DNA of 64,000 bases, from NCBI GenBank assembly GCA_040753215.1, contig JBFMEZ010000029.1, forward strand, positions 29,394 through 93,393. Reading direction: 5' to 3'. The translations under genes and the position numbers were made by a program. Below, piece by piece: positions 2,854 through 61,651 of this stretch (its first letter is position 1; each line of letters begins with the position of its first letter). The DNA is from Candidatus Micrarchaeota archaeon. Its GTDB lineage: Archaea > Micrarchaeota > Micrarchaeia > Anstonellales > Bilamarchaeaceae. The notes beneath the pieces are model-generated. The model had not been told where the DNA came from, did not search any database, and worked only from the letters and a program-made list of their open reading frames with translations.

Positions 2854-2879
2854 AAGTTTCCGGTTACCGGTTTCCAGTC

Positions 2880-2968
2880 AAACCGTGAAGCCAGGGACGA
2901 ACAGGGGACGGGAGGGCGGCTTCACGGTTTGAGTTTCCGGAACTTCCTATTTTTATTCTTTTTTCTCT
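2880..2968 (+). terminator. strong hairpin (13-bp perfect stem AAACCGTGAAGCC/GGCTTCACGGTTT) followed by T-rich tract
   Basis: Directly 3' of membrane-protein gene; stem 2880-2892/2918-2930, T-runs 2950-2968. Confidence 0.4.
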
Positions 2969-2978
2969 TATCCTACTT

Positions 2979-3140
2979 ATGGAACTCAAACAGGCCATCG
3001 TCATTCGCACCGACCTTGACATGGGCAAAGGCAAATTATGCGCCCAAGCAGCACACGCCTCCCTCTCCGCCCGGAAAAACGCGGGGGAAGCGTCCCCCCC
3101 ATTTTTACCGGTCATTCTGACCCCCCTCCACTTCCCTTAG
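2979..3140 (+). pseudogene. decoy 5' fragment of pth2 (31 codons, synonymously diverged) fused in-frame to hairpin element; 53-codon ORF ending TAG
   Basis: [31 protein letters not shown] matches Pth2 N-terminus at 3217; then ..[22 protein letters not shown]. Confidence 0.6.
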
Positions 3141-3216
3141 CCATCCTTGGCACGCCTCCTTACGCACCTCCGCGCATCTAATATCAATATATATCTATCA
3201 TAACCAATCATTACTT
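3072..3216 (+). repeat. 5'-end-associated hairpin element, copy A (AAAAACGCGGGGGA-AGCG-TCCCCCCCATTTTT core plus AT-rich promoter-like tail)
   Basis: Core shared with copies at 21060 and 31384; 6-bp GC stem + T5; tail contains TATA-like ATATATAT 30 nt before pth2 ATG. Confidence 0.6.
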
Positions 3217-3561
3217 ATGGAACTAAAACAGGCTATCGTTATCCGCACAGACCTCGGCATGGGGAAAGGAAAATTGGCTGTACAAGTGGCGCACGCCTCC
3301 CTCTCCGCCTACAAGAAGGTTTCCCCGAAAATCCGCGACGAGTGGGAGCGCACCGGAATGAAAAAAATAGTCCTCAAAGTAAATTCCGAATCCGAGCTCT
3401 TCAAATACTTTGAGGAATGCCGGCGCGCAGGAATCCCCTGCTCCCTCATCCAGGATGCCGGCCTCACCCAAATCCCCTCCGGCTCGCCAACCTGCTTCGG
3501 TGCGGGCCCCTGGGATGCGGAAGGGCTGGACAAAATCCTCGGCAGACTAAAGTTATTATAA
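3217..3561 (+). CDS. pth2: peptidyl-tRNA hydrolase, archaeal/eukaryotic type
   Basis: 114 aa; conserved Pth2 N-terminus and overall length. Confidence 0.85.
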   Translation: MELKQAIVIRTDLGMGKGKLAVQVAHASLSAYKKVSPKIRDEWERTGMKKIVLKVNSESELFKYFEECRRAGIPCSLIQDAGLTQIPSGSPTCFGAGPWDAEGLDKILGRLKLL

Positions 3562-6083: not shown

Positions 6084-6665
6084 ATGGAAGAATTGATTAC
6101 CAAGGAACGCGCCAGAGCGTTCATTAAGGCGAATAAGATTACGAATGCCGCCCAATGGGAGGAAGCCATCCTGGCAAGTGGCAAGGCCGTCATAGAGGCC
6201 ATGCTTGAGGCTGAGCGGGACCAGCAGCTTGGCTATGCCAGGAACGACGTCAAAAACAAGGATACGGATAATTCCAGGAATGGGTATAGCCAGAAGATAA
6301 TCCGTTCCAGATTGGGGCAGATGTGCCTCGGCATACCTCGGAATACCCATGGTGAGTTTGAACCTACAATAGTGAAGAAACACGAAAGGGAGATTTCCCA
6401 TGAGGTTGAGAATGCCATCCTCCTGCTATACGCCAAGGGCTTGTCGATGCACGACATCACCTCATATATGGAAAAAATATACAAGGTGCCGGTTTCCGCT
6501 GAGACAATCAGCCGGATAACCGACAAGGTGCTGCCTGCGGCCAATGCCTGGCAGAACCGGCCTCTGGATGACGTCTATCCTATCATTTACCTGGATGGAA
6601 TCGTTTTCCACGTTAACCAGGATGGGAGGATCGCAAGGAAGACTCTTGGACTGAACCCCTGTTAG
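6084..6665 (+). pseudogene. IS256-family transposase, N-terminal fragment
   Basis: 193 aa with Mutator/IS256 N-terminal motifs (..YPIIYLDGIVFHV..DGRI), truncated by IS3 insertion at ~6652. Confidence 0.7.
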
Positions 6666-6704
6666 CGTACCAACAGTTAAGAGACAAAGTGGGGTGTAAA
6701 GTCC

Positions 6705-7010
6705 ATGAAAAAGAGGGTGTATCCAAGAGAAACCAAGATAGCGGTGTTGAATGAGCTCCAGGCAGGAAGATCGGTTGCAGAGCTGTGCAGGAAATACGAG
6801 ATAAATGCCAACCTCATTTACCGTTGGAAATGCGATTATAAGAAAGATCCAGAACGCGCATTTTCTGGCAAAGGAAACATAAGTACTGCCGAGGCAAGGA
6901 TTGCCCAGTACGAGAGGCTCGTAGGGCAGCTCTACGCCGAAAACCGGCTTTTAAAAAAAGCCTTGGAAAGGTTAGAGCGGCTGAAGGCCGAGCAGAAGCT
7001 AAGGGGTTGA
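6705..7010 (+). CDS. IS3-family transposase OrfA (HTH)
   Basis: 101 aa, HTH + leucine-zipper-like C-term; A7G slippery run at 6951-6958. Confidence 0.8.
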   Translation: MKKRVYPRETKIAVLNELQAGRSVAELCRKYEINANLIYRWKCDYKKDPERAFSGKGNISTAEARIAQYERLVGQLYAENRLLKKALERLERLKAEQKLRG

Positions 7011-7882
7011 TACCGATGTTTTACGAAACCATAAAGGAGGAAAAACGCTCAATAGCCCTTAGGCCAGCTTGCAGGGCACTTGGTGTGAGCAGGAGCGGCT
7101 ATCTCGACTGGGAAAAACGAAAGCCAAGGCAAACATCGGCTGAAGATCAAAAAATCCTCAGCCATATGCAGTCCATTGCTGAGGAGTTTGGATACTATGG
7201 ATATCGACGTATAACCAAGGCACTTAGGCGACAGGGAGTTGTTGTGAATCATAAGAGAGTGCTTAGGATGATGAGGGAGAATAGCCTGACGATAAAAATG
7301 AAGAAGTTCAAGCCAAGAACAACAGACTCAAGCCACTCTCTGCCGTCATTCCCAAACCTTGCAAAGGGTTTGGTGGTAGACCATATCAACCAGTTATGGG
7401 TAGCGGATATAACCTATGTTCCACTCGACGATATTTTTCTTTACCTGGCCTTGTTGATGGACGTATTCAGCAGGAAGATCGTGGGATGGCAGTTGGGCCG
7501 GAATATTGATACGGAGCTGTGCCTCGATGCATTGAAAAGGGCGTTTGCATCGAGAAGGGGAATGGACCTGGGCGGCCTGATCCATCACTCTGACCACGGG
7601 AGCCAATACCTTTCCAAGGAATACATATCCCAATTGAAAAACAGGGGCATCCAGTCCAGTACAGGAGAAACAGGCGTTGCTTACGACAACGCCTTTGCTG
7701 AGGCGGTAAACAAACTGGTCAAATACGACGAAGTTTACAGGTCCAAATATGAGTCTTTTGAAGATGCGTATCTCGGAATCAAAAAATACGTGGGGGTGTA
7801 CAACAAGAAGAGGCTTCATTCGGGCATAGGATATTTGCCGCCGGATGAGTTTGAGAAAGCATTAAAAAATTCTCTTATCTAG
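7007..7882 (+). CDS. IS3-family transposase OrfB (DDE integrase core), expressed as OrfAB by -1 frameshift
   Basis: 291 aa with DDE motifs (..WVADITY.., ..HSDHGSQY.., ..YDNAFAE..). Confidence 0.8.
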   Translation: MIPMFYETIKEEKRSIALRPACRALGVSRSGYLDWEKRKPRQTSAEDQKILSHMQSIAEEFGYYGYRRITKALRRQGVVVNHKRVLRMMRENSLTIKMKKFKPRTTDSSHSLPSFPNLAKGLVVDHINQLWVADITYVPLDDIFLYLALLMDVFSRKIVGWQLGRNIDTELCLDALKRAFASRRGMDLGGLIHHSDHGSQYLSKEYISQLKNRGIQSSTGETGVAYDNAFAEAVNKLVKYDEVYRSKYESFEDAYLGIKKYVGVYNKKRLHSGIGYLPPDEFEKALKNSLI

Positions 7883-8563
7883 TGGTACGCTGGAAGGGGT
7901 GCAGTCCAGCATGTTGTATATGGCATCACAATCTCAGGCAGGAAGGAGATCCTTGGCATCTGGATAGGGGAGGCGGAATCTTCGAAATTCTGGGCCAAGG
8001 TATTGATGGACCTACGCAACAGGGGGGTGAAGGACATCCTTATCGCAGCCGTAGATGGGCTTAACGGCTTCTCTGAGGCCATCAGTTCGATCTTCCCCCA
8101 GGCTGAGATACAGAAGTGCATCGTGCACCAGATAAGGACTTCGTGCAAGTTTGTGAGCTACAAGGACCTCAAGCTGTTCTGCACCGGCATGAAACCGATC
8201 TACCATGCCCCCAATGAGCAGGCAGGGCTGGCTGCGCTGGCTGAGTTTGAGAAGAACTGGGGCAAGAAATATCCGTATGCCATCAAGAGCTGGAAGGAGA
8301 ACTGGGCGTCATTGGCGACGTTCTACAAGTACCCGGAGGAGATACGGCGCCTTATCTATACGACGAATCCCATAGAGGGATTGAACCGCAGGCTGAGGAA
8401 GGTCACCAAGACCAAAGGTTCCTTCCCTTCGGATGATGCACTCTTCAAGCTGCTTTATTTGGTGGTTGAGGACGTAAGCAGAAAATGGACAATGCCGATT
8501 GACAACTGGGGGCTCATCCTCCAGCAGCTGAACCTGTACTTTGGGGAACGGATGGGTGCATAT
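7883..8563 (+). pseudogene. IS256-family transposase, C-terminal fragment
   Basis: ..AVQHVVYGITISGRKEILGIWIGEAESSKFWAKVLMDLRNRGVKDILIAAVDGLNGF..NPIEGLNRRLRKVTK..: canonical IS256 C-terminal half. Confidence 0.7.
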
Positions 8564-8890
8564 GCAGACTGCGTAATTCCAGGCATGTTGCCGGCATCCG
8601 CGGTTAGCGGATGCACTGTCCCGCTAGCGCGCGGGACGAACGAACGCTTATATTTTTTGTGTTCGAACGCTTGTTTGCGGACGAAACGCGAGCGCGAGAT
8701 CAGTTTTTGGTTTTGCGAACGCGAGCGGACGAGCGAAGCGAAAGGCGTTTCAACAAAAATTATGACGGACCCCCTGCGCCAATCTATGGCACAACCTATT
8801 CAACCTCTATGCCGCTTAATTCTGTCCCACAGCCGGTTTTGGCATTGGCCGCGCAGGCTTGGACGCAGACCCACGCCGTAGCCATTAACA

Positions 8891-21044: not shown

Positions 21045-21182
21045 TGCTCATGGCAATCGCAAGAAAAAACGCGGGGGAAGCGTCCCCCCCATTTTCCTCC
21101 ACCTTTCTGACCCCCCTCCACTTCGCTTTGAGGCGCTTTGAACGCGCTCCTTACGCAAGGGGCAACACAGGGGTGAACTGAA
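21045..21182 (+). repeat. 5'-end-associated hairpin element, copy B, with 12-nt decoy of rpl29 start (ATGGCAATCGCA); 43-codon read-through ORF 21050-21181
   Basis: AAAAAACGCGGGGGAAGCGTCCCCCCCATTTT core identical to copy A; ends GGGGTGAACTGAA-ATG (new RBS for rpl29). Confidence 0.65.
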
Positions 21183-21437
21183 ATGGCAATCGCACGCATA
21201 AACGATTTGAGGGCGCTTGCGCCCGAAGAGCTTGCGAAGAGGCTCGAGACATACGGGCGCGAGATGCTCGAGGCGGGGGAGAACCCCAAGAAGGGGAAGA
21301 ACCTCCGGAAGGCGATCGCCCGCATAAAGACCGTACTCAGCGAGGGCAAAATTGCCCCGGGGAAGGCGGCCGCAGGCACACAGAAGCCGCCATCCGTAAA
21401 AGAAGCAAAACAGAAGAAGGTGAGAAAAGTTGCCTGA
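21183..21437 (+). CDS. rpl29: ribosomal protein uL29
   Basis: 84 aa. Confidence 0.85.
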   Translation: MAIARINDLRALAPEELAKRLETYGREMLEAGENPKKGKNLRKAIARIKTVLSEGKIAPGKAAAGTQKPPSVKEAKQKKVRKVA

Positions 21438-31250: not shown

Positions 31251-31294
31251 GTTCCCGGTTTCCCGTTTCCGGGAGCCGGTTGCGGGTGAATGCA

Positions 31295-31469
31295 GATGAT
31301 AATAACAGTATGGGGATGGACCGGTGCAGGGAAGAATACCCTCGGCGAGCTTCTCGCAAAGCGCCTCGGCTACCGCACCACCAAAAACGCGGAGGGGGAG
31401 ACCCCCTCCCCATTTTTAGGTGTCATTCTGACCCTCCCCCCGGTTCTTTCGAATGAGGTGAATGCATGA
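31295..31469 (+). repeat. 5'-end-associated hairpin element, copy C, preceded by ~88-nt decoy of cmk 5' end; 57-codon read-through ORF ending ATGA-overlapped with true cmk start
   Basis: 69 nt identical to cmk 31478-31546 plus 19 diverged nt; core AAAAACGCGGAGGGGGAGACCCCCTCCCCATTTTT with compensatory stem changes relative to copies A/B. Confidence 0.65.
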
Positions 31470-31984
31470 TTATCACGGTCTGGGGATGGACCGGTGCAGG
31501 GAAGAATACCCTCGGCGAGCTTCTCGCAAAGCGCCTCGGCTACCGCACCGTTTCTCCTACGTTTAAGGACCTCGCGGCAAAGGAGGGAATCTCCCTTCTT
31601 GAATTCCAGAAGAAGGCAGAGAAGGACCCTGACATAGACAGGAAGTTCGACGAGCTCCTCAAGGAAGAAGCCGGGAAGGGCAACTGCATCGTTACCACCT
31701 GGCTCGGCCCCTGGATGGTCCCCGCGGATTTCCGCATCCTGGTGTTCGCTCCGGAGAAGGTGCGCATCGAGCGCATCGCGAAGAGGGAATCCGTCTCCCA
31801 GAAAGAAGCGGCAAAATACGTGCGCGAGAAGGATTCCGGCAACATAAAGAGGTACAAGAACGTATATGGAATCGACATAACGGATACAAGCTCCTTCGAC
31901 CTCGCCCTGAGCGCGGAAACCTACCGCCCGGAGCAGATGGTCGAGATTGCCCTGTTGGCAATAGAAAAGAAAATGAAGAAATGA
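31466..31984 (+). CDS. cmk: cytidylate kinase (archaeal type)
   Basis: 172 aa, WGWTGAGKNT P-loop. Confidence 0.85.
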   Translation: MIITVWGWTGAGKNTLGELLAKRLGYRTVSPTFKDLAAKEGISLLEFQKKAEKDPDIDRKFDELLKEEAGKGNCIVTTWLGPWMVPADFRILVFAPEKVRIERIAKRESVSQKEAAKYVREKDSGNIKRYKNVYGIDITDTSSFDLALSAETYRPEQMVEIALLAIEKKMKK

Positions 31985-36976: not shown

Positions 36977-37059
36977 CGCGAAGGGGGAGATTTGAACTCC
37001 CAATCCCTTGCGGGACATGCTTTCCAGGCATGCGCACTACCGGGTTATGCGACCTCCGC
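36977..37059 (-). tRNA. tRNA-Ser (anticodon GGA), type II with long variable arm, no encoded CCA
   Basis: Manual fold: acceptor GCGGAGG/CCTTCGC (one G-U), D-stem GCAT/GTGC, anticodon stem CATGC/GCATG loop CTGGAAA, variable arm TCCCGCAAGGGATT, T-arm GGGAG-TTCAAAT-CTCCC, discriminator G. Confidence 0.8.
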
Positions 37060-37420
37060 TCTCCTTTTTGCCATCGTGAACCTCGGCCTCTGCATCGCTG
37101 CGGCGATGTCTGGCGAAGTTCTGCGGAACTTCACCATCGCTCGGTGCAAAAAGGAGTCCAAAAACCCCAAGCACCTTCACGCTGGCGGCGAAACCGGAGC
37201 CCAAAAACCCCAGACAAAAGGGATTACTATAACGCTGCGTTTCCCTTTTATTCTTTTGCCCGTTAATTCGCGTTTTTTTCTCCCGTTTCTTCCCTCTTCC
37301 CCCGCCCAACACCCTTTTTAAGCATTTCTACGGAATATTCTCTCTACGCGTGTTCTTGCGTTCAGAGAATATGAGCCTTAACCCATTTCCTCTCGCGCGA
37401 GCCACGCATTTGGTGATTAT

Positions 37421-44089: not shown

Positions 44090-44824
44090 ATGGCAGAAGA
44101 GAAAAAGCTCATACATCCCATCCATCCAGTTATTTTCGAAGTAGACATAAATCACCTCTGCTGGTTCGTTGATATTACGGAAAAAAACCCAGACGCCACC
44201 CTCGTCTCCACAATGTCCACGGTGCATGGCGACCTAATCACCAACATAGTCCAGCTCACTTCCCCCAATCCCAGGGAGGATATAGAGCGCATAAAGAAGC
44301 ACCCGCTCGTAAAGAAGGTGGAAATCCTTGCGCTCGCCCCAACCTCCGCCCTACTCTCTGTCACCTCCAGCTACAAGGCGATGACCTACAAGATTCTACA
44401 TCAAACTAACGTTAAGCTTCTGGAGTCCCCGGTCACAAGGGGCGGCCTGGACTCCGAAATCCTCCTCGCCCCTTCCCACAAGGACATGGCAGACCTCTTG
44501 GGCCTCTGGAAGGAGCAGAAGGGCTACGCAGAAGTGAAACTGAAGCGCAAGCGCTACCTCAAGCCGGAGGATGTCCGGTCTCTGAGCGTATTCCGCACCG
44601 CCGGCTTCTTCGACCTCCAGTCCGCAAAGGAGCTAATCACCCCCAAGCAGTTGGAGATATTCCAGCTCGCCTGCGACTACGGCTACTACGAAACACCCAA
44701 GAAAATAAGCATAGAAGAGCTCGCCCAGCGCACCGGGCTCTCCCCATCCACCCTCGCCGAGCATTTGCGCAAGGCCGAGGCAAAGCTCCTTCCCGTCTTC
44801 TGGAAAGTCCTCCGGAAGCTCTGA
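44090..44824 (+). CDS. transcription regulator with C-terminal HTH_10 (bacterio-opsin-activator-like) domain
   Basis: 244 aa; ..ISIEELAQRTGLSPSTLAEHLRKAEAKLL.. Confidence 0.55.
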   Translation: MAEEKKLIHPIHPVIFEVDINHLCWFVDITEKNPDATLVSTMSTVHGDLITNIVQLTSPNPREDIERIKKHPLVKKVEILALAPTSALLSVTSSYKAMTYKILHQTNVKLLESPVTRGGLDSEILLAPSHKDMADLLGLWKEQKGYAEVKLKRKRYLKPEDVRSLSVFRTAGFFDLQSAKELITPKQLEIFQLACDYGYYETPKKISIEELAQRTGLSPSTLAEHLRKAEAKLLPVFWKVLRKL

Positions 44825-44959
44825 ATGGGCGCCTATGCTTTTGCCATCTACTTACAGGGGTATAAGTAACTTATGGGGGTATAAGCAAATGCCTTCATAT
44901 TTATAAATGCTGGCAGTCTAATGCCAAGTTATTTAAATATTATGTGGCACTATAATGCC

Positions 44960-46249
44960 ATGGAAACCCTCCTCACAGAGCAGAACCCCTGGTGGCACGA
45001 CAGGAACGCAATATCCGCGGACAGGGACATTGTGAATTACAGCAACGCAAGCTTCAAGATCCCCCTCCCGGCCCTGCGCGCCGAAAAGGGTGTCATCGTA
45101 ATCCGCGGCCCGAGGCAGGTCGGGAAAACCACGTTCCTCAAGCACCTTGCCGCAAAGGAGATAGGCCTTCTGGGCCCGAGGCAGGTCTTCTATTTCAGCG
45201 CGGAGAGCGGCTACCCTCTGGACAAGGCGCTCAGGGAATTCCTTGATTTCTCCGGCGAGGGCAAGAGGGTGCTTCTCATAGACGAGGCGACCGAAGACAA
45301 GGAATGGGCGACCAAGGTGAAATACCTGCTTGATTCGGGCAAGATGCGGGAAAGCGACCTCATCGTAATCACCGGCTCCTCTTCGGTGGACCTGAAAGCT
45401 GGGGCGGACAGGCTCCCCGGCCGCGGCGTGGAAGGCAACGAATTCCTGTTCTTTCCCTATTCGTTCCGGGACTTCTTTCCATCCAACCCGGAGGGCTGCG
45501 GCCTCGCGGATTTCAGCGAAAAGGCGGCGAAGGAACTCGCCCTTGACCCCCAAAACAGCATAATGTTTGCCAAGTACATCTCAAACGGCGGGCTCCCTTC
45601 GGTCTGGAACACCGAGCGCGAGCTCGCGAGGGAGAGGTACGCCAGGTGGATAGAAGGGTTCATCTCAAAGAACGGCCGCTCCATACTCTATGCCCGCGAG
45701 ATTCTCGCGAAGCTGGCGGAAAAAACAACGTTCGATTTCATGGGGCTGGCGAGGGAGACGAGCATCTCCTCCCACCACACGATAGAGGGCTACGTCTCCT
45801 TCTTCGAGGCCGGCATGCTCGGCAGGCTTCTCTACAACTACAACCTGGCCACCTCTTCGCCAGACCCGAAGAAGGAGAAGAAATTCGTCTTCATAGACCC
45901 GTTCATCTCCCAGATATTCATCAGCAAACGGGAGGAGCCCTTCCTCGTGGAGGATATAGTCGGCTCGCACCTCCTGCGCGCCTGCGACGAGCTCTATTTC
46001 CACAGGGACAAGAAGGGCGAGGTGGACTTTCTTTGCAAGGCAGGCGGGAAGCTGGTTCCCGTAGAGGTGAAGTGGCAGGAGAAGGTTGCCGAGTCGGATG
46101 CCCGGAACCTCAAAAAGTTCGGCGGCGGCTTCCTGCTCACAAAGGATTTCTCTGGCAGGTTCGGCAACGTGCTTGCAGTGCCGGTGCCCGTTTTCCTCAG
46201 GATGATTGGAAGAACGATGGCCATAAGGAAGCCACTAGGCCAATTCTGA
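44960..46249 (+). CDS. AAA-family ATPase with C-terminal DUF4143-like domain
   Basis: ..NPWW.. N-terminal signature, GPRQVGKTT Walker A, LLIDE Walker B; ORF 44921-46249. Confidence 0.65.
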   Translation: METLLTEQNPWWHDRNAISADRDIVNYSNASFKIPLPALRAEKGVIVIRGPRQVGKTTFLKHLAAKEIGLLGPRQVFYFSAESGYPLDKALREFLDFSGEGKRVLLIDEATEDKEWATKVKYLLDSGKMRESDLIVITGSSSVDLKAGADRLPGRGVEGNEFLFFPYSFRDFFPSNPEGCGLADFSEKAAKELALDPQNSIMFAKYISNGGLPSVWNTERELARERYARWIEGFISKNGRSILYAREILAKLAEKTTFDFMGLARETSISSHHTIEGYVSFFEAGMLGRLLYNYNLATSSPDPKKEKKFVFIDPFISQIFISKREEPFLVEDIVGSHLLRACDELYFHRDKKGEVDFLCKAGGKLVPVEVKWQEKVAESDARNLKKFGGGFLLTKDFSGRFGNVLAVPVPVFLRMIGRTMAIRKPLGQF

Positions 46250-46289
46250 ACGGTTGCCATGATGCTTTCCCTATTCAACCCGGCGCCTT

Positions 46290-46324
46290 TCCCTCGCCGT
46301 CTGGAAAGTCCTTCGGAAGCTCTA
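46290..46324 (+). pseudogene. remnant of the 3' end of a paralog of the HTH_10 regulator gene
   Basis: CTCGCCGTCTGGAAAGTCCTTCGGAAGCTCTAA (..LAVWKVLRKL*) vs 44792-44824 CCCGTCTTCTGGAAAGTCCTCCGGAAGCTCTGA (..PVFWKVLRKL*). Confidence 0.55.
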
Positions 46325-46384
46325 AAACCGCTCCACAGCGGCTCTAGTATTATCTACCACTTGCCTCGGATGTATATTCATGAA
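46324..46384 (+). promoter_or_regulatory. duplicated promoter/5'-leader block, copy 1 (ACAGCGGCTCTAnTAnTATCTACCAnTTGC..TATGTATA..ATGAA)
   Basis: ~60-nt block repeated at 47265-47326, each ending at the start codon of a different gene. Confidence 0.55.
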
Positions 46385-46742
46385 CTTAGATGCCAGAAAG
46401 CTAACCGGTCCGGACAAGCAGATTGCCGCAGGCCAGCAACAGCAGGGTCCCCGCAAAAGCGTATTCGCGAGGGCAGTTCCTATTGTAGCCCCTCCCTTAA
46501 TTACTGGTTTTCTGCTTGGTTTTGGAATAATGTATTTCTCGCCTTCCAAGCACAAGTCCGAAAGCCAACCAGCAGCCCCCCAGCCAACAAAGAGCATTCA
46601 TCCGGATTGCGATCCGGAGCATGCGCCTCCCGAATCGGGGCAGTATTATTTTGATGAGCGCGGTCGCGTTCATGAGGGTTACAGGATAGTTGACGGGCAC
46701 GGTCGCGTCATCCGCTTCTGCCCGCCCACCTGGGGCAGGTAG
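46380..46742 (+). CDS. small membrane-anchored hypothetical protein
   Basis: 120 aa; one TM (PLITGFLLGFGIMYF). Confidence 0.4.
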   Translation: MNLDARKLTGPDKQIAAGQQQQGPRKSVFARAVPIVAPPLITGFLLGFGIMYFSPSKHKSESQPAAPQPTKSIHPDCDPEHAPPESGQYYFDERGRVHEGYRIVDGHGRVIRFCPPTWGR

Positions 46743-46748
46743 ATTCCT

Positions 46749-47240
46749 ATGGGTATAACCATGAACACAAATATCAAAGACCTCAGCTACGAAGAGCGAT
46801 GCAGGAATGAGCACTTCATAGACAATGTCGGCGCTGATGAGCGCCTGTCCCAATCTTTTCGCCAAGAGGCGTGTGAGTTCGCTAAACAGAACGGAATAGC
46901 TCTCACAGATGAGGCACATGTGCGCCGCCTGTTCGCTTATCTGAGGGACCAGGGAAAAATAGAACGGCTGATAAAAAGGGAAGCCGGGGACTGGGTAGGG
47001 TTCAGCCGCTATGGCACGACCGGGGACGTCGAAAGGGCAGTCTCTCTCGCAAGGCACAAGCTCTATATGGTTAAGGACGGCCTTGACGCAAGAATGCTGT
47101 TTGACGACGCTTGGAGGTTTTTCGGCCATCCTTCCAACGATTTGGAACGTCCTTACCGGCTTCGGGACAGGTTCTCGCGCTGGCTGGACCGCAAGCTGCA
47201 ACAGATGGAAGCGGCGCCCGGCGGCAGAATCCGGCGCTAA
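46749..47240 (+). CDS. hypothetical protein
   Basis: 163 aa. Confidence 0.4.
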   Translation: MGITMNTNIKDLSYEERCRNEHFIDNVGADERLSQSFRQEACEFAKQNGIALTDEAHVRRLFAYLRDQGKIERLIKREAGDWVGFSRYGTTGDVERAVSLARHKLYMVKDGLDARMLFDDAWRFFGHPSNDLERPYRLRDRFSRWLDRKLQQMEAAPGGRIRR

Positions 47241-47264
47241 AACTCACGCCGATGCCTGCCAATA

Positions 47265-47326
47265 AACCCGCCGTACAGCGGCTCTACTAATATCTACCAA
47301 TTGCAGAGTATGTATAATTATGAATC
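47265..47326 (+). promoter_or_regulatory. duplicated promoter/5'-leader block, copy 2, driving aminotransferase-P1-P2 operon
   Basis: See 46324-46384. Confidence 0.55.
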
Positions 47327-48576
47327 ATAGTGCAAGATACATAAAGAGATCAAGCGCGGATATAATGGAAGTAGTTCGCGGATTTGATCGTTACCACAGA
47401 ATGTTCAGGGAGTATACACAAAGAGGTGGAAAGGTTGGAAGTTCTTTAGACCGGGGGGCATTCACCCGCCCTCACGAGGTATTGCCTGAAGAAGCACGTT
47501 TTCTTCTTGGTGAGGGGCGGAGGAGCGGATCTTTTGCATATGGTCCGGAAGCAGGAGATGACAAATTAAGAGAAAAAATAGCGGAGGTTGAAAATAGGCG
47601 CCATGGAACTTTCTATTCGCCAGATAACGTTGCTATGCTTCCAGGTGCTTGGTCAGGAATAGTATTTGCGATAGAAGAGATCCTGAATCTAAAAAATGGA
47701 AAGATGAATAAAGAAAAAATAGCAATTATAGGGCCAACTTTATACCTGATGTTTCAGCGCATTATCAGAGACTATGGCATCGAAGTAAATGCGTATGATT
47801 TTGTAGTCCCTGGGACAGAGCGCGTCCCAACAAGTATGGATGATATGGAGTGTGTCTTTGCCGATAGACCGAAAATGATTGTAATCACAAACCCAAACAA
47901 TCCGGATGGCAAATACTTTCCACCTGCTTTACTAAGAGAGGTTATTGAAAGGGCAGGCCAAGAAGGAATTTACATCATTATGGATGAGATTCAAAACTGT
48001 TTCCCCCGCCGTGCTCGTATAGGGTACAGTTCATGGATTCAAGCGCCAAACGTAGTCCGTATGGATTCTGCTTCAAAAGCGTATGCGCTTGCAGAATACA
48101 AGACCGGATGGATGATCGCAGAACCGAGGCTGCTTGGCGACAGAATGGATGGAATTATAAGTCGTATGAGCGGGATTATGGGTAATGCTCCAAGAGCCGC
48201 AAATACGGCGTTACTTTACTTGCTTAATAGGGAATTGGAAAGAATTGCGACAGGAGTAGACTATTTATCATCTGTTCATGCAAAATTAACCAGAAAAGAA
48301 GAATTTGTCCTGGCTCATTTGGCAGCCATGGACAACATCATAGAAATAATTTTGCCACACGCCTGCATCAACCTTACGGTGCAGGTTGCATTTGATGGGA
48401 CCGATATGGAGCTAGCGAAAATATTGATGGAGAACGGAACACTTCTGATGCCTGCTAGCGGATATGGCCATAGCATAAGTCCGCCCACCCTGCGCATCAC
48501 TTTTGCAGAAAGGCAAGAAAAAGTGGAGCATTCCATGGCTGTTTTAGAGCGTGTACTTGGAGGTTATGTTTCATGA
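47320..48576 (+). CDS. PLP-dependent aminotransferase (class I/II fold)
   Basis: 418 aa; AT-rich; ..DSASKAYALAEYKTGWM.. Lys region; ATGA overlap with next gene. Confidence 0.6.
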   Translation: MNHSARYIKRSSADIMEVVRGFDRYHRMFREYTQRGGKVGSSLDRGAFTRPHEVLPEEARFLLGEGRRSGSFAYGPEAGDDKLREKIAEVENRRHGTFYSPDNVAMLPGAWSGIVFAIEEILNLKNGKMNKEKIAIIGPTLYLMFQRIIRDYGIEVNAYDFVVPGTERVPTSMDDMECVFADRPKMIVITNPNNPDGKYFPPALLREVIERAGQEGIYIIMDEIQNCFPRRARIGYSSWIQAPNVVRMDSASKAYALAEYKTGWMIAEPRLLGDRMDGIISRMSGIMGNAPRAANTALLYLLNRELERIATGVDYLSSVHAKLTRKEEFVLAHLAAMDNIIEIILPHACINLTVQVAFDGTDMELAKILMENGTLLMPASGYGHSISPPTLRITFAERQEKVEHSMAVLERVLGGYVS

Positions 48577-50147
48577 GCGATATCCTTCCCTATGATATCC
48601 TGAACAAGGGCTGGAAAGCCACCTGCAAAATCCTCTTAGGCGAGGAAATAGGCGAGCTCAGCGATTACAGGGAATGGCTCTCGGAGTTCCTTCCTCCCAC
48701 CGGAAAAACCCATTCCCACCTCTCCGGAAAGGAAGTAACCCTCGCCATGGATGCCTACTGCCCAAAATCCAGGTTCATCTCTTCCGATGAAATAAAGGAA
48801 AAGAAGCTCGCCCCCCTCTCCATAGACCAGGTAAAGGACATAGATTCCATCGCAGAAGCAATCTCAGAAAGATGGGAATACACCGGAAACAGGGTCCTCG
48901 GCAATTCCTCTTCTGTAGATTCCTCCGACCTGGTAATGGATTCCCAGTTCGTCTCCGGCTCCACCAACATCCAGCAGTCCTCCTACGTTTATTCCTCTGC
49001 CCTCGCCCGCATGGGCAGCAAATACATCTACGGCTCCCACGGCTTCGCCCAGGGCGAGTTCCTCATCCGCCACTGCGCGGGCTTCAACCTCAAGCGCCAG
49101 TTCGAGACCCACTTCATAACCGACAGCAGTGACCTCTATTTCGCATTCAACTGCATAGGCTGCAGCGAGCTCCTCTTCTCCTTCTTCCAGCGCAACAAGC
49201 GCCATTGCATAGGAAATCTCCAGCTTCCCAAGGAGAAATATCTCTCCCTCAAGAAGAAGCTCCTGTCCGAAGTGGCCTCCGAGCTTAAGAGAAACAAGCG
49301 CTTCCCATCCCTTTTCCACCTGGTTCCGAACAGCAAGCCTCGCCATTCCCTTTCCATCCCGCAATCCAGGCCCAAAGAGGACATGCCCGCAATAGACAAA
49401 GCGTTCTCCTCCGCCTTCAAGGTCATTTTCAGAAAGGATGCGCAATCCGTATTCCCATACGAAAAATGGCTCTCCCGCCAGCTCCTCGGCATAAGCGAGA
49501 TAAAGTCCCCCTTCGGCCACAAGACCTGTTTCCCAGAGACCAAGGCAATGTTCCTCTTCTTCACCGCCCCCCGCAGCCGCATGGTCTCCCTTGCCGAAGG
49601 GATGGAACTCGGAAAGCGCCACCTCGAAGAGCCGCAGCTCTCCTCCCTTTCCAGCATAATAGATAATCTGGGTGAAATCGGCTATTTCACAGCCGAATTC
49701 CTGGACGGCCCGGTCACCAACGCCATAAGCACGCCCATCGCCTACTATTCCTCCAACGTCTACAAGGCGCTGGACGCAACCCATTCCGAATACTCGGGCC
49801 TCTCCTCCCAGGTGCTGAACTCAAAATACTGCTTCGGCGGCTTCCGCATATTGGAGTCCCAGTTCTGCCTCAACTGCTACAATTCCCTCAATCTTTCCCG
49901 TTGCCTGGAAGTGGACACTTCCGAGAAATGCTCCGACTCCCTCTTCTGCCACAACTCCGAAGGGCTCGCGGAATGCATGTTTTGCTTCAATCTTAAGGGG
50001 AAGAGGTATGCAATAGGCAATTCGCCCCTTCCGCCGCAGGAATATCTCAAGGTGAAGGATTCCCTTCTTTCCCAGATGGCCGATGAACTGGAGCGCAACC
50101 ACTTGCTCCCCTACGACATATTCAACATCGGCTGTGCAGGTGCATGA
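48573..50147 (+). CDS. Cys-containing internally duplicated repeat protein, family member P1 (unknown function)
   Basis: 524 aa; N-term WKATCKILLGEEIGEL..EWLSE; halves end in C.GCSE..FSFNxRxKRHxIGN..LPxxKY and CxN....C.MFCFNxKxKRYAIGNSxLP motifs; C-term DIFNIGC. Confidence 0.5.
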   Translation: MSDILPYDILNKGWKATCKILLGEEIGELSDYREWLSEFLPPTGKTHSHLSGKEVTLAMDAYCPKSRFISSDEIKEKKLAPLSIDQVKDIDSIAEAISERWEYTGNRVLGNSSSVDSSDLVMDSQFVSGSTNIQQSSYVYSSALARMGSKYIYGSHGFAQGEFLIRHCAGFNLKRQFETHFITDSSDLYFAFNCIGCSELLFSFFQRNKRHCIGNLQLPKEKYLSLKKKLLSEVASELKRNKRFPSLFHLVPNSKPRHSLSIPQSRPKEDMPAIDKAFSSAFKVIFRKDAQSVFPYEKWLSRQLLGISEIKSPFGHKTCFPETKAMFLFFTAPRSRMVSLAEGMELGKRHLEEPQLSSLSSIIDNLGEIGYFTAEFLDGPVTNAISTPIAYYSSNVYKALDATHSEYSGLSSQVLNSKYCFGGFRILESQFCLNCYNSLNLSRCLEVDTSEKCSDSLFCHNSEGLAECMFCFNLKGKRYAIGNSPLPPQEYLKVKDSLLSQMADELERNHLLPYDIFNIGCAGA

Positions 50148-50148
50148 T

Positions 50149-51726
50149 ATGGACACATACGAAGCCCTCAACCGCTCCTGGAAATCCCTCTGCCGCCTTC
50201 TTCTGGGCGAAGAGATAGGCGAGATGAAAGAATACGAGAAATGGCTCACCCAATACCTTGAGCCCATGCGCGTGGAGCGCTCTGCAATCTCAGGCAAGGA
50301 TGTATATGTAGCGGTTCCAGAATACTGCAAAGATGCAAAATTCATCTCCCTAGAAGACACTCAATCTTCCAAGCCCGCCCCCCTCTCCATCAACGAAATC
50401 AAGGACATAGACTCAATAATGGAATCCCTCCGCGAGCGCTTCCTCTACTCCGGCAACGTCATCCTTTCCAATTCCCGCGATGTTTCCCAGAGCACCAACA
50501 TCCAGAACTCCTTCCACGTGCTCCGCTCCAACTTCATCTGGGATTCCGAATACATTGGCTACTCCTCCATGGTCCGCGGCGGCAAGCATCTTATTGGAGT
50601 AAACAACGACGCCTACTCCTCATTCATGCTCAGCAGCATGGAAACCTACAAGAACAGCCGCTGCCTGGAGCTGTGGGAATCCTTCGACTGCACCGAATCC
50701 TATTTTGTGTTCGGCTCATGGAACTGCCAGAACATCCTTTTCTCCTTCAACCAGCGCAACAGGCGCAACGTAATCGGAAACATCGAGCTCCCGCGCGACA
50801 AATTCCTTTCCCTCAAGAGCAAGTTAATAGAAGAGATGCGCGATGAGCTGAAGCGCAACAAATCCCTGCCTTCTCTCTTTGAAATCGCATCTGCCAACCT
50901 GAGGAGATCGAAAATACCCGCCGGCTTCCATACTGAAGAGATGCAGGAAGGCACGGACAAGGGCATAATAGAGGACGCATTCCGCAAGACCACGAAAATA
51001 GTCTTCGGGAAAGAGCTGCAGGACATGGATGCCTATGGGGATTGGCTCCTGCGCCACGTGATAAAAACGAAACCCGCTGTTTCCGCAGCCACGGGCAGGC
51101 CCACCTCCCTGAGCTCACACGCCCCTTACAAATTCTATCCAAGGAACCGTCTCGTGAAGATGAATGAGGCAGTGAAGCTCGGCGAAATCCTCCATATGGA
51201 TGAATCTGACATCCACTCGCTCGATTCCCTCAAGGACTCCCTCTGGAAAATCGCGTTCTTCTGCTCCGAGATAATGCTCGGCGAAAACAAAAACCTGATT
51301 GGAGTGATGCTCGCCAACCAGTCCAGCAACTGCTACAATGGTTCGGTCTATTCCTATGATGAATACTGCGGCTTCTCCTTCTGGCCAAGGGACTCCAAAT
51401 ATATGTTCGGCTCATCTATGGCCTTCTCCTCCAATTTCTGCATCAACGCCTACAATTCCCTCAACCTCTCGCGCTGTTTTGAGGTGGACGGCTGCAGCAG
51501 CTCCTCCGACCTCTACTTCTCCCACAACTGCGAGAACGCGCAGGACGCGATGTTCTGCTTCAATTCCAAGAATCTTAAGCACTCGATAGGCAATTCCGCG
51601 CTCCCGCCCGATAAATACAAGTCCCTGAAATCCTCGCTCCTCTCCCAAATCTCAGACGAGCTTGAGAAGACCAAATCCCTCAGATGGGACATCTTCAACC
51701 TGGGCTGTCCAAAGGTGCCATCCTGA
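50149..51726 (+). CDS. Cys-containing repeat protein, family member P2
   Basis: ~525 aa; same architecture as P1; start overlapping P1 stop. Confidence 0.5.
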   Translation: MDTYEALNRSWKSLCRLLLGEEIGEMKEYEKWLTQYLEPMRVERSAISGKDVYVAVPEYCKDAKFISLEDTQSSKPAPLSINEIKDIDSIMESLRERFLYSGNVILSNSRDVSQSTNIQNSFHVLRSNFIWDSEYIGYSSMVRGGKHLIGVNNDAYSSFMLSSMETYKNSRCLELWESFDCTESYFVFGSWNCQNILFSFNQRNRRNVIGNIELPRDKFLSLKSKLIEEMRDELKRNKSLPSLFEIASANLRRSKIPAGFHTEEMQEGTDKGIIEDAFRKTTKIVFGKELQDMDAYGDWLLRHVIKTKPAVSAATGRPTSLSSHAPYKFYPRNRLVKMNEAVKLGEILHMDESDIHSLDSLKDSLWKIAFFCSEIMLGENKNLIGVMLANQSSNCYNGSVYSYDEYCGFSFWPRDSKYMFGSSMAFSSNFCINAYNSLNLSRCFEVDGCSSSSDLYFSHNCENAQDAMFCFNSKNLKHSIGNSALPPDKYKSLKSSLLSQISDELEKTKSLRWDIFNLGCPKVPS

Positions 51727-55193: not shown

Positions 55194-55241
55194 TCGGATA
55201 TAGTCGCTCGTTCTTGAATCGTAAATCCTATCGGATTTCAG

Positions 55242-55315
55242 TATCGCTGCGGCGATATCTGGCAGAATTCTGCGGAATTCCGCCATCCGATAGCGGGCAA
55301 AGTTTCCGGATTTTG
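55242..55315. repeat. composite palindromic intergenic module, copy 2 (TATCGCTGCGGCGATA .. GGCAGAATTCTGCGGAATTCCGCC ..)
   Basis: Matches 1950-2062 module. Confidence 0.6.
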
Positions 55316-58537: not shown

Positions 58538-59308
58538 ATGAAAATCAGCGATTTGTTCAGGGAGATAGGCTTCTCGGAGGGTGAAGGCAAGGTATACCAG
58601 GCCATCCTCACGCACCTTTCCCCGACCCTCCAGTCCATCCACGAAGAGACCGGGATAGAGAGAAGGAACGTCTACGACATCGTAAACAAGCTCATCTCAA
58701 AGGGGCTGGTCACCTACCAGATGGAGAACAGGAAGAAGACCTACCACACGACCCACCCAAGCAAAATACTGAACTACCTAGAAGAGCGGGAAGGTGAGAT
58801 AACGAATGCAAAAAACATGGTGAATGCAGAGCTCGGCCAGCTTGTGAATATGTACGAGGGCAGCAAGGAGGAGTTCCACACGGAGATTTACAGGGGGAAC
58901 GAGGGCATGAAGGCTGTTTTTGAGGATATACTGAATTATAAGCACTACTACCTTATAGGAGGGAATTTTGGCGTTATGAGATTCCTTGGCGAAGCATTCT
59001 TGAACAGATGGCATGCAAAAAGGGAGAAAAAGAAAATCTGGATTCACGACATAATAAGGTACCAGAGCTTTATTGGCGAAGGGGCGATTCCTGAATTTAC
59101 CAAGAACCTAAAATACTGGGAATACAAGATGCTCCCCAAGGAATTCTGGTCCCCCCACGTGATTTTCATATACGGGGACAAGGTTGTGAATGTATTTTGG
59201 GGCGAACAAAGCTTCGCATTCCTCATCCAGAACGAGGGCATCGCGAAGAGCTATATGGACTATTTCAACTATCTGTGGAAAACCCTGCCTAGCCCCAAAA
59301 GGCGATGA
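58538..59308 (+). CDS. TrmB-family transcriptional regulator (paralog 2)
   Basis: 256 aa; N-terminal TrmB wHTH; stop 2 nt before P3 start. Confidence 0.65.
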   Translation: MKISDLFREIGFSEGEGKVYQAILTHLSPTLQSIHEETGIERRNVYDIVNKLISKGLVTYQMENRKKTYHTTHPSKILNYLEEREGEITNAKNMVNAELGQLVNMYEGSKEEFHTEIYRGNEGMKAVFEDILNYKHYYLIGGNFGVMRFLGEAFLNRWHAKREKKKIWIHDIIRYQSFIGEGAIPEFTKNLKYWEYKMLPKEFWSPHVIFIYGDKVVNVFWGEQSFAFLIQNEGIAKSYMDYFNYLWKTLPSPKRR

Positions 59309-59309
59309 C

Positions 59310-60857: not shown

Positions 60858-60872
60858 TCGCAGCAGCTTTAA

Positions 60873-60903
60873 AAATTCACTACTATATAATCATAATAGT
60901 GAA
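60873..60903. promoter_or_regulatory. palindrome TTCACTACTATATAATCATAATAGTGAA overlapping GTG start of TrmB paralog 3 (TATA box + candidate operator)
   Basis: AATTCACTACTAT also at 58372-58384 upstream of TrmB paralog 2. Confidence 0.45.
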
Positions 60904-61651
60904 AGAAATAGAAGAAATCCTGAAGAAAGTGGGCCTAACCACGCAGGAATCCCGCGTATACCTTGCGCTCCTTGAGCTCCAAGAGGCGCAGACCGGCCGC
61001 CTCTGCTCCTTCACCGGCATAGCCAGCTCCAACATCTACAACATCCTCCGCTCCCTCATGCAAAAGGGCCTCGCAAGCTACCGTGTGCAGAACAATACCC
61101 GCGTCTTTCTCCCCGCCTCACCAGATGCGCTGAACGAGCTTTTCCTTGAAAAGCAGAAGAAACTTGATGAGGAACGCCGCGAGGTCACAGCGCTCGTCTC
61201 CAGCCTGAAGAAGAGAAAGGTTGAGACCGAACCCTACTCCAATTACAAATACTACGAAGGAATTTCTGGCGTAAAATCCATGTGGCATGAAATCAACGGC
61301 TTCATGTCCCCGGACTCAACCGCCCTTGTATACACCTCCCGCCGCGCAGCCTATGAAAAATTGATAAGCTTCTACGACGTACACCATAAAATGCGCCGTG
61401 AAAAGGGGATAAAGGAGCTTATGGTTTTCCCGGACGAGGACAGGGAACTCGGCCACAAGCGACGCAACAGATATACGGAAGTCCGCTTCAGCAGCATAAA
61501 AAGCGACGCAGAATGGGGCATTATAAGGGACCGCCTCTACATCCAGTACATCACCGGAAAAGTCCCCCGCGCATTCCTCATAAAAGACGAGACCTTCGCC
61601 AACACCTTCCGCGAGGTCTTCTCAAAGCTCTGGGAGCGTGCAAAGCCATGA
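60899..61651 (+). CDS. TrmB-family transcriptional regulator (paralog 3), GTG start
   Basis: 250 aa; ATGA overlap with P4. Confidence 0.65.
   Translation: MKEIEEILKKVGLTTQESRVYLALLELQEAQTGRLCSFTGIASSNIYNILRSLMQKGLASYRVQNNTRVFLPASPDALNELFLEKQKKLDEERREVTALVSSLKKRKVETEPYSNYKYYEGISGVKSMWHEINGFMSPDSTALVYTSRRAAYEKLISFYDVHHKMRREKGIKELMVFPDEDRELGHKRRNRYTEVRFSSIKSDAEWGIIRDRLYIQYITGKVPRAFLIKDETFANTFREVFSKLWERAKP

Follow-up and report, generated by a model that had tools for sequence, protein, structure and literature searches.

In this work we analysed a window of 64,000 nucleotides (nt) from a Candidatus Micrarchaeota archaeon, that is, the whole stretch of DNA presented above, in which four genes, pth2, rpl23, rpl29 and cmk, have a doubled start: a copy of the 5' end of the gene is followed by an insert and then by the intact gene. 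The initial annotation had described this arrangement, and direct repeats at each of the four genes bear it out. At pth2, rpl29 and cmk the insert is a hairpin-bearing element that we call element E, a name for a unit of about 95 nt defined by its aligned copies. In the following, W designates the window allele or genome and L001–L087 the loci fetched from metagenome contigs and relatives. The features are summarized in Table 1.

Table 1. Positions of the features at the doubled gene starts and of the pth2-linked endonuclease genes (window positions unless a locus is named)
Feature	Position	Strand	Description
Native pth2 promoter-like stretch and short leader	2948–2978	+	TATTTTTATT about 25 nt before ATG
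pth2 upstream copy ('decoy')	2974–3071	+	5-nt leader and codons 1–31
Element E at pth2	3072–3165	+	94 nt; covariance model 92.9 bits
Stretch P' between E and working pth2	3166–3211	+	AT-rich, TATA-like ATATCAATATATATC about 25 nt before ATG
pth2 downstream copy of duplicated segment	3212–3309	+	within 3212–3561
Working pth2 gene	3217–3561	+	PF01981; 100% identical to NCBI metagenome-assembled genome protein P0121
Block of 12 differences in working pth2	3257–3291 (nt 41–75)	+	G14, AVQV versus E/D14, CAQA
rpl23 locus	18115–18338	+	30-nt duplication around 164-nt insert 18145–18308
rpl29 upstream copy ATGGCAATCGCA	21050–21061	+	perfect 12-mer, again at 21183
Element E at rpl29	21062–21156	+	95 nt; 65.9 bits
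rpl29 filler	21157–21182	+	26 nt, Shine–Dalgarno-like GGGGTGA
Working rpl29 gene	21183–21437	+	follows filler
cmk upstream copy	31276–31379	+	leader CCGGTT..GGTGAATGCA and codons 1–28
Element E at cmk	31380–31441	+	62 nt; 83.1 bits
cmk downstream leader copy and working cmk	31440–31984 (gene 31466–31984)	+	
LAGLIDADG genes	L001 565–1551; L084 2501–3511; L085 2501–3496; L086 2501–3433; L087 2501–3406		
LAGLIDADG remnant	L079 640–700		

Doubled gene starts at pth2, rpl29, cmk and rpl23

The promoter-like stretch and leader that precede the upstream copy of pth2 (2948–2978) are contiguous with the upstream Yip1-like gene, as in relatives, and the same T-rich stretch is found before pth2 in L002–L004, L065 and L079. 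The duplicated segment of pth2 is 98 nt long and its two direct copies (2974–3071 and 3212–3309) are 82% identical; they differ at 18 nt and in 14 of 31 codons, 10 of these differences being silent and 4 amino-acid changing, which reproduces the codon counts first reported. Element E sits inside codon 31/32 of the resident gene. The upstream open reading frame (ORF; 2979–3140, 53 amino acids) enters E and stops inside it, 77 nt before the real ATG. From its position, stretch P', which separates E from the working gene, is presumed to have replaced the native promoter and to give a leaderless pth2 mRNA: each of the two TATA-like runs of the locus precedes its ATG by about 25 nt.

At rpl29 the upstream ORF (21050–21181, 43 amino acids) ends 1 nt before the real ATG, and at cmk (31296–31469, 57 amino acids) it ends on the ATGA of the real start. 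The cmk repeat extends over 95 nt (31285–31379 versus 31457–31549) with 94% identity; over the inner 74 nt its copies do not differ at all, and the four silent differences and the two indels are confined to roughly the outer 40 nt. The silent changes are clustered within codons 2–5 (12 nt) at the working start, and the codons of the working copy are those of one relative, those of the upstream copy those of another. The rpl23 duplication is perfect (30/30, 18115–18144 and 18309–18338), and there too the stop of the upstream ORF overlaps the real start as ATGA. The truncated ORF had been said to stop at or overlap the real start in every case; this holds for rpl23, cmk and, with a gap of 1 nt, rpl29, and not for pth2. 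At all three E loci the upstream ORF enters E in the same phase (AAA AAC GCG). In a flank-duplication test anchored on the base that immediately precedes the insert, none of 300 shuffles reaches the duplication seen at pth2, rpl29 or cmk (p about 0.003); rpl23 was left out, its insert not being E.

No insert is present between L4 and L23, S3 and L29 or L34e and cmk in five relative contigs (L073–L078, 76–81% L18 identity), where these genes are adjacent or overlapping. Because relatives lack all three, the three insertions in the ribosomal-protein operon are lineage-specific, and the comparison with relatives that had been proposed does reveal a presence/absence polymorphism.

The element had been thought common to the four loci, which is correct for pth2, rpl29 and cmk. 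The rpl23 insert was rejected as a fourth member: it has no match to the covariance model of E, and BLAST relates it to another repeat. It is homologous to the intergenic repeat between tRNA-Ser and S13, found in the window at 37061–37240 and in relatives (71% identity over 97 nt to L074 17598–17694), and the single 14-nt core match at 18265 is incidental. This second structured repeat, or S-element (window 18145–18308 and 37061–37240; L074 17598–17694; L073 16810–16935), adjoins tRNA-Ser upstream of S13, and the rpl23 insert is a copy of it. From genome to genome the sequence of its long-range stem CTCCTTTTTGCC/GGCAAAAAGGAG changes, with its complementarity kept. A 21-mer, CCCCCTTCGCTTCGTGCCCCA, is common to the rpl23 insert (18233–18262) and to a hairpin insertion of about 38 nt nested in the pth2-linked E of L080 (2815–2860); this sharing suggests a third family, of very small mobile hairpins.

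Other repeats adjoin the same loci. GGTTTCCGGTTTCC-like repeats occur in the window at 1844–1881, 2032–2069, 2847–2884 and 31256–31293; one of them borders a long hairpin that immediately precedes the native pth2 promoter, and another lies in the 45-nt stretch from the L34e stop to the upstream cmk copy, a stretch absent in relatives. A palindrome-rich repeat of about 50 nt, ATCGCTGCGGCGAT..GGCAGAATTCTGCGGAATTCCGCC, is present at 1970–2019, 37089–37138 and 55238–55287, with a fourth copy upstream of tRNA-Ser in L061 (3430–3480).

Element E, a structured repeat family

A covariance model of E, built from 23 copies and run over the window and the fetched loci, gives 29 distinct full-model matches. 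In the window it matches only at pth2, rpl29 and cmk (3072–3140, 21062–21130 and 31380–31451), where the core motif lies at 3075, 21065 and 31383. The layout of E is (NNN)AAAAACGCGG–stem–loop–stem–CCATTTTTA(N'N'N')GTCATTCTGACCC(Y)CCCCC–ACTTCAC...CTCCTTACGC. At pth2, the long hairpin (3072–3110, CGG-A5-CGC-GGGGG..CCCCC-CCA-T5-A-CCG) is followed by a small hairpin with the invariant block GTCATTCTGACCC (3110–3124), then by a C-rich tract and a tail ending in CTCCTTACGC. The long hairpin is the left end of E and is closed by a covarying base triplet, the right end of full-length copies is CTCCTTACGC, and both ends are consistent. This small second hairpin, GGTCA-TTC-TGACC, and the block TCATTCTGA are invariant across copies. 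In the hairpins of 23 copies, 99.4% of cells are paired and six pairs show compensatory changes, a degree of pairing reached by none of 500 shuffles; the closing stem triplets are GTC/GAC, CGG/CCG, ACC/GGT and CCC/GGG. The three window copies fall in different stem-triplet subfamilies. The rpl29 copy is 80% identical to the pth2 copy and has a degraded lower stem; the cmk copy, of the ACC/GGT subfamily, ends early, after the C-rich tract, and is 69–77% identical to the other two.

The hairpin had been described as followed by five T residues, which is true of the pth2 and cmk copies, where the arrangement is A5–stem–T5 (fragments 3072–3120 and 31380–31430 fold at -17.8 and -21.5 kcal/mol); the rpl29 copy has T4 only. 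By its form, a GC stem-loop with a T-run on either strand, E is an intrinsic-terminator-like site at which termination is predicted. The minus strand of E folds somewhat better than the plus strand, since what is an A.C mismatch on the latter is a G.U pair on the former. Read on the minus strand, the best-conserved block is GGAGGGTCAGAATGAC (window 3128–3108, for example), in which an invariant GGAGG, a Shine–Dalgarno-like run, is followed after six nt by an ATG; this ATG opens a short ORF, MT(G/S/P)KNG..., that crosses the hairpin and leaves via the left end of E (window ORF 2864–3115, minus strand).

When metagenome contigs were scanned with a pattern, 37 loci came up, of which about 27 are clearly E; the idea of a repeated, discrete, hairpin-bearing element has held up. 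Two scans of viral contigs with element patterns gave zero E matches. The metagenome copies lie on Micrarchaeota contigs and are mostly intergenic or adjoin tRNA genes: in some, the hairpin end lies 3–4 nt from the 5' end of a tRNA gene (Asn, Ala, Thr), and in others it lies after a tRNA 3' end, directly after a stop codon, or 9–67 nt upstream of a gene start. Copies upstream of tRNA-Asn are seen in three different contigs. Clear flank duplications ending exactly at the hairpin triplet are found in 3 of the 26 copies outside the window (L055, L061 and L065), 2–3 more copies have marginal ones (L072, p about 0.05), and at least 20 have no detectable duplication. Since only 3–6 of these 26 copies have flanking duplications, E does not target gene 5' ends as such, contrary to what had been proposed; the window is unusual in that every E copy there is inside a gene start.

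In L061 (2533–3282), E and a GNAT acetyltransferase gene lie at position 37/38 of tRNA-Thr, whose 3' half is duplicated; the tRNA-Thr of L067 (2055–2180) has an ordinary 56-nt intron at the canonical position 37/38, and the syntenic tRNA of L061 is intronless. The tRNA-Ser(GGA) between truB and S13 is inverted in L074 (17352–17432, plus strand) relative to the window (36977–37059, minus strand) and L073, with unchanged flanks, and in L074 tRNA-Ser(GGA) is directly followed by a copy of E into which about 55 nt are inserted. A role of E as promoter of the adjacent tRNA genes was not adopted, because the only TATA-like run, counted by hand, is about 31–37 nt or more away from the end of E, a greater distance than is usual in archaea.

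It is very improbable that E is a portable module selected for regulation, in which the upstream ORF, the hairpin and the T-tract would act as an attenuator or leader that adjusts how strongly the downstream gene is expressed. Constraint on the hairpin and on the invariant block is clear, and such a role would suit the ending of the upstream ORF on or 1 nt before the real ATG at three loci, its common phase into E, the invariant minus-strand GGAGG-N6-ATG and the recurrence upstream of tRNA-Asn. However, relatives express the same genes without E, the pth2 upstream copy is down to 10 and 0 codons in related genomes, and the pth2 upstream ORF stops well before the gene. In addition, it is nothing unusual for a GC-rich 95-mer to have an open frame, and in the full-length E of L061 a stop is present in only one frame of the three.

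Like miniature inverted-repeat transposable elements (MITEs), E forms small, non-coding, dispersed copies with defined ends, and like REP/BIME repeats it has a conserved, mostly extragenic hairpin. REP/BIME, Correia, ERIC and other MITEs of bacteria are short multi-copy hairpin elements that lie at gene boundaries, have terminator- or promoter-like content and receive nested insertions, features that E shares. In contrast with them E is archaeal, has no Rfam match and lacks terminal inverted repeats, its ends, (NNN)AAAAACGCGG and CTCCTTACGC, showing only a weak GCG..AGG resemblance; nor does it have a fixed short abutting duplication, since a minority of copies are flanked by long gene-end duplications, of 12 to about 115 nt, with 12–50 nt of filler at the right end. 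An origin of E as a MITE of the insertion sequences (IS) of the window was rejected, as the terminal inverted repeats of the IS3- and IS1595-family elements are unrelated to the E ends. No HUH/Y1 protein of the RAYT/TnpA type was found among about 45 window ORFs scanned against Pfam. Rfam 15 covariance models, run over the whole window at an E-value of 10, detect no family at pth2, rpl23, rpl29 or cmk, the sole real match in the window being the tRNA at 36977–37059; hammerhead-like, C/D-box and tRNA-like readings of the CTGA/GAAAC motifs were accordingly ruled out. Nothing relevant on hairpin elements of Micrarchaeota was found in the literature searched, and exact-sequence look-ups of the pth2 protein and of the decoy ORF returned no record.

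The pth2 start and its homing endonucleases

About 20 relatives share a pth2 N-terminus ending in (A/S)AHAS, and the upstream copy of W has the same sequence. This copy differs from orthologs at 16–19 of 93 nt, with 12–16 silent codons and 1–3 amino-acid changes (18 nt, 16 silent codons and 1 amino acid for L065); it is as similar to the orthologs as they are to one another, and its divergence matches that of the rest of the W gene. Such ortholog-level, almost purely silent divergence agrees with the initial view that both pth2 copies evolved as coding sequence. The upstream copy shows no relaxed constraint and therefore was part of the working gene until recently; it is the displaced native 5' end. 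The G14/AVQV block of the working copy (Table 1) is found among relatives only in alleles linked to LAGLIDADG endonucleases, L001 and L079/P0142, the latter with a different pth2 backbone. Over nt 55–93 the working copy agrees with L001 at 37 of 39 positions, and the upstream copy matches every relative free of a homing-endonuclease gene (HEG). The working pth2 start apparently carries imported, HEG-linked sequence. Foreign DNA is thus probably involved at pth2, as had been proposed, in the reverse direction: the upstream copy, first taken for the foreign fragment, is native and the working start appears imported.

The endonucleases belong to a free-standing LAGLIDADG family of about 300–336 amino acids with 2,298 homologue matches. 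All five members examined, 44–100% identical, sit on the pth2 start, immediately upstream of it and overlapping it, in different Micrarchaeota/DPANN gene neighbourhoods, and each is followed by a recoded pth2 5' end. In L001, the 328-amino-acid LAGLIDADG gene is fused in frame to the first six native pth2 codons and overlaps the recoded pth2 start; in L084, 13–14 recognizably native pth2 codons stand upstream of the endonuclease within an ORF of about 22 codons; in L079, the endonuclease gene is deleted, about 15 nt of its 3' end remain, and there is no E. We found no description of a LAGLIDADG family dedicated to the pth2 start in the literature searched. On this comparative evidence pth2 is demonstrably a homing site, and because the imported start of W carries the LAGLIDADG-linked block, the locus appears to have been visited by two kinds of selfish DNA.

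The second kind, E, has its own distribution at pth2. In L002–L004 the gene directly follows its own promoter, without insert. In L080–L083 (89% protein identity to W) a diverged E and a homologous P' are inserted some 5 nt upstream of the ATG, and no gene fragment precedes them; in L065, E and P' are again homologous and 10 codons of the gene stand upstream, and the junction shares a TCCGC microhomology with the W junction. The upstream copy in the presence of E thus measures 31 codons in W, 10 in L065 and 0 in L080–L083, the left end of E being the constant junction. Since the working pth2 that accompanies E and P' in L065 and L080–L083 is of the native, unrecoded type, E is independent of the recoding. 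No ORF in W 3072–3216 matches an endonuclease in Pfam, and LAGLIDADG genes lie at the equivalent place only in L001 and L084–L087. E as a degraded remnant of a LAGLIDADG gene was ruled out, as the HEG-deleted L079 has no E and E with P' occurs beside unrecoded pth2.

These observations bear on the possibility that the duplicated starts are footprints of homing endonucleases, in which a cleaved 5' region is repaired from, or selects, split or recoded alleles, E and the new start being an endonuclease-less passenger in place of the endonuclease gene. The five LAGLIDADG genes on pth2 with recoded 5' ends behind them, the native upstream fragments kept in L001 and L084, and the HEG-linked block present in W without a HEG are all consistent with this, as is L079, which shows that the HEG can be deleted to leave only a duplicated start; the four clustered silent changes in codons 2–5 of cmk are likewise those expected of target recoding. 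As a general explanation it is nevertheless improbable: in L065 and L080–L083 E and P' precede an unrecoded working copy, no HEG is found at rpl23, rpl29 or cmk in W or relatives, E is similar neither to the HEG nor to the L079 remnant, and most E copies are at tRNA genes or intergenic with no HEG nearby.

The likeness to homing-endonuclease cassettes (fungal mitochondrial HEG or intron insertions, and the pth2 LAGLIDADG genes themselves) is real: these too consist of a displaced native end, an insert and a replacement end that differs mostly silently, they spread between lineages by recombination, and their inserted or truncated ORF uses the native start. A recoded target shared across host backbones is found at W pth2 (G14/AVQV). 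Unlike these cassettes, E measures 95 nt and contains no endonuclease ORF, its working copies can be unrecoded, and many of its sites are not gene starts. A diversity-generating retroelement was rejected, as the pth2 differences are not adenine-specific (4 of 18 fall on A's of the upstream copy and 4 on A's of the working copy); at cmk the four differences do fall on A's of the upstream copy, many other A's being unchanged.

The same loci argue against an assembly artefact, in which co-existing strains or repeat-induced misjoins would have created tandem gene starts. The window comes from a metagenome-assembled genome, other assemblies break at E (L050 and L065 end inside it), and the two pth2 copies resemble two alleles; but the same architecture is found in independent samples (L065 for the same gene, L055, L061), random joins at repeats would pair unrelated flanks and not the same gene start four times, and the HEG loci have the same upstream fragments. 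We consider such an artefact extremely improbable.

Origin of the duplicated starts

The E copies of the window are 69–80% identical to one another, and the flanking duplications are 94–100% identical (rpl29, cmk and rpl23). Next to E the two copies of the duplication agree completely for 12 nt at rpl29 and for 74 nt at cmk, which, given the divergence of the E copies, indicates that the duplications are younger than the elements and that the window copies are not fresh copies of one master. In addition, the duplications are polar: the two copies are identical at the inner boundary over 18 nt (pth2), 30 nt (rpl23), 12 nt (rpl29) and 74 nt (cmk), and divergence lies outward. If changes were uniform along the duplication, the polarity at cmk would have a chance of about 0.002 (estimated by hand). 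The L055 duplication has the same inner-identical polarity.

We tentatively favour the reading, quite possible although short of probable, that cassettes made of E, a promoter or Shine–Dalgarno sequence and a gene start were imported through recombination with one-sided homology and joined at the hairpin end. A fragment of this composition from another lineage would have recombined with the resident gene, on its right side by homologous recombination within the gene, and on its left side by an illegitimate join, always exactly at the E hairpin end and 12–93 nt inside the resident coding region. In essential genes only products that rebuild a complete gene start would survive. At pth2, the resident 5' end persists as a truncated ORF on the native promoter, and the second start, behind its TATA-like stretch, carries the working gene. 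Because the A5–hairpin–T5 has a terminator shape on either strand, E should stop transcripts from the old promoter, and P' would restart transcription. At the operon loci (rpl29, cmk and, with its unrelated insert, rpl23) the frame of the truncated ORF stays open across the insert and ends at the real ATG or beside it, which suggests translational coupling; re-initiation by ribosomes would be possible and would limit polarity, and the rpl29 copy has also lost its T5.

Such an import would account for the native upstream copy of pth2, for a working copy that is foreign on its outer side and identical on its inner side, and for old elements with young duplications; it would also account for the three left junctions of one pth2 cassette and for essential genes having survived. 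In bacteria, recombination is on record in which one end joins through homology and the other illegitimately (PMC3240628), and N-terminal gene duplication accompanying mobile-intron gene conversion, with lateral exchange of fragments, is documented in fungal mitochondria (PMC8393795). The first of these processes, homology-facilitated illegitimate recombination of naturally transformable bacteria, explains foreign-outer and identical-inner sequences and variable left junctions; its usual outcome is a deletion or replacement, whereas here the outcome is a duplication, and the illegitimate end is always the exact hairpin terminus.

Several points weigh against the import of cassettes. No donor allele was found for rpl29 or cmk, all the ribosomal-protein operons of relatives that were examined being without E. 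To double the inner segment, either break-induced synthesis or another copy of the chromosome must be assumed. That the left end is constant and exact points to an enzyme with the hairpin as its substrate, and none was identified among the window ORFs scanned. The 46-nt duplication of L065, whose divergence is uniform and not polar, and the duplicated non-coding leaders (L055, L072) fit an ordinary, decaying target duplication. The terminator, promoter and coupling functions are read from the sequence only, and the homology-facilitated mechanism is documented in bacteria, not in archaea. Integration of a small circle by a Campbell-type crossover was rejected, since it predicts differences on both sides of the crossover and not an identical inner and a diverged outer part.

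It is possible, if rather unlikely, that E is instead a non-autonomous transposable element, MITE-like or copied from RNA by target-primed synthesis, that makes target duplications of 12 to about 115 nt; insertions in essential gene starts would survive only if the duplication rebuilt the start, with later divergence and, at pth2, HEG-linked gene conversion. In favour of this, E is discrete, with defined ends, and occupies many unrelated loci; in W, L055, L061 and L065 the end of the duplication falls exactly 3 nt short of the A5 run, and no mismatch separates the copies at rpl29 or rpl23. Duplication also extends to non-coding leaders (L055 and, marginally, L072), so that a gene start need not have been selected. 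The precise left end and the truncated or filler-bearing right end (cmk, L055, L036) recall 5'-truncated retrocopies, the better fold of the minus strand would suit an RNA with the hairpin at its 3' end, and the uniform divergence of L065 points the same way. On the other side stand the divergence of E copies relative to their duplications, the 12–50 nt of unrelated filler between the right end of E and the second copy, the lack of a detectable duplication at most copies outside the window, the absence of terminal inverted repeats and of any likeness to the ends of the IS3, IS256 and IS1595 elements of the window, and the absence of a reverse transcriptase among the ORFs scanned. In addition, duplications of the same kind flank the rpl23 insert and two cassettes of the window that are free of E (44794–47324). 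In the first (44794–46326), the 3'-terminal 32 nt of an HTH_10 regulator gene stand on both sides of an AAA_14/DUF4143 ATPase gene; the second (46323–47324) consists of two small ORFs between copies of the 62-nt promoter and ATGAA of an aminotransferase gene, the first small ORF using the duplicated start. The duplications of both are imperfect. Because these cassettes have the same kind of duplication, gene-end duplication is not a property of E alone.

Retroposition by target priming, as for short and long interspersed nuclear elements, resembles the behaviour of E in having one precise structured end, another end that is variable or truncated with filler, and variable target duplications; in contrast with those systems no reverse transcriptase or poly-A-like tail was found, and the W copies are old relative to the duplications. 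We know of no target-primed insertion of this type in archaea.

The remark that no described element class targets gene 5' ends in this way needs correction: analogues are found in homing-endonuclease cassettes, in one-sided-homology recombination and in integrating elements that bring a replacement gene end. The last of these include viruses and plasmids of archaea and bacteria that integrate into tRNA genes, and the prophages e14 and phage 21 in E. coli icd. As at pth2, the target is rescued by a diverged incoming gene end and the original end is left as a fragment, and the tRNA-Thr locus of L061 is an example. These systems differ from ours in that the scanned ORFs include no serine or tyrosine recombinase, the inserts measure 60–165 nt and several genes are targets; a fixed att core does not fit, because the length of the duplication varies at the single target pth2 (0, 10 or 31 codons).

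A bolder proposal, which we regard as unlikely, makes E the active end of an undescribed class of archaeal, non-autonomous 'gene-start replacement' elements: an enzyme acting at the hairpin terminus, or target-primed copying, would join E into gene 5' regions, and the adjoining DNA would supply or regenerate the promoter or Shine–Dalgarno sequence and the gene start, giving rise to long, variable duplications.

Other mobile or repeated sequences lie elsewhere in the window. An IS256-family (Mutator-type) transposase gene (6084–8881) is split by an IS3-family element, which has 38-nt terminal inverted repeats (6647–6684 and 7871–7908), and an IS1595-family element (12227–13133) has 26-nt inverted repeats (12227–12252 and 13108–13133) and a transposase in two ORFs. 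Four paralogous ORFs of 524–573 amino acids form two tandem pairs (48573–51726 and 59190–63234), 55–79% identical in nucleotide sequence over blocks, near genes for radical-SAM proteins, methyltransferases and TrmB-type regulators; the two that were scanned (48573–50147 and 50083–51726) have no Pfam match.

In conclusion, E is an archaeal structured repeat tied, in a minority of copies, to gene-start replacement, and at pth2 it is superimposed on a previously unnoticed, pth2-specific LAGLIDADG family. The finding is real and less exotic than was proposed, with three E loci and not four, no targeting of 5' ends and a reversed foreignness. DPANN genomes are very small and gene-dense, and almost any insertion in them should be lethal; yet four essential genes within 30 kb have insertions inside their first 12–93 nt, each rescued by a second gene start. 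For annotation, this means that truncated 'decoy' ORFs and wrong start calls will recur in metagenome-assembled genomes of Micrarchaeota. The LAGLIDADG family of the pth2 start is a testable case of archaeal homing outside introns and inteins. If the mechanism that we favour is true, it would offer selfish DNA and foreign alleles a route into such genomes that leaves the genes unbroken, and would be a means of reshuffling promoters and terminators within conserved operons. If a class of gene-start replacement elements exists, tiny DPANN genomes would tolerate insertions in essential genes, and these insertions may become landing pads for homing endonucleases, as at pth2.

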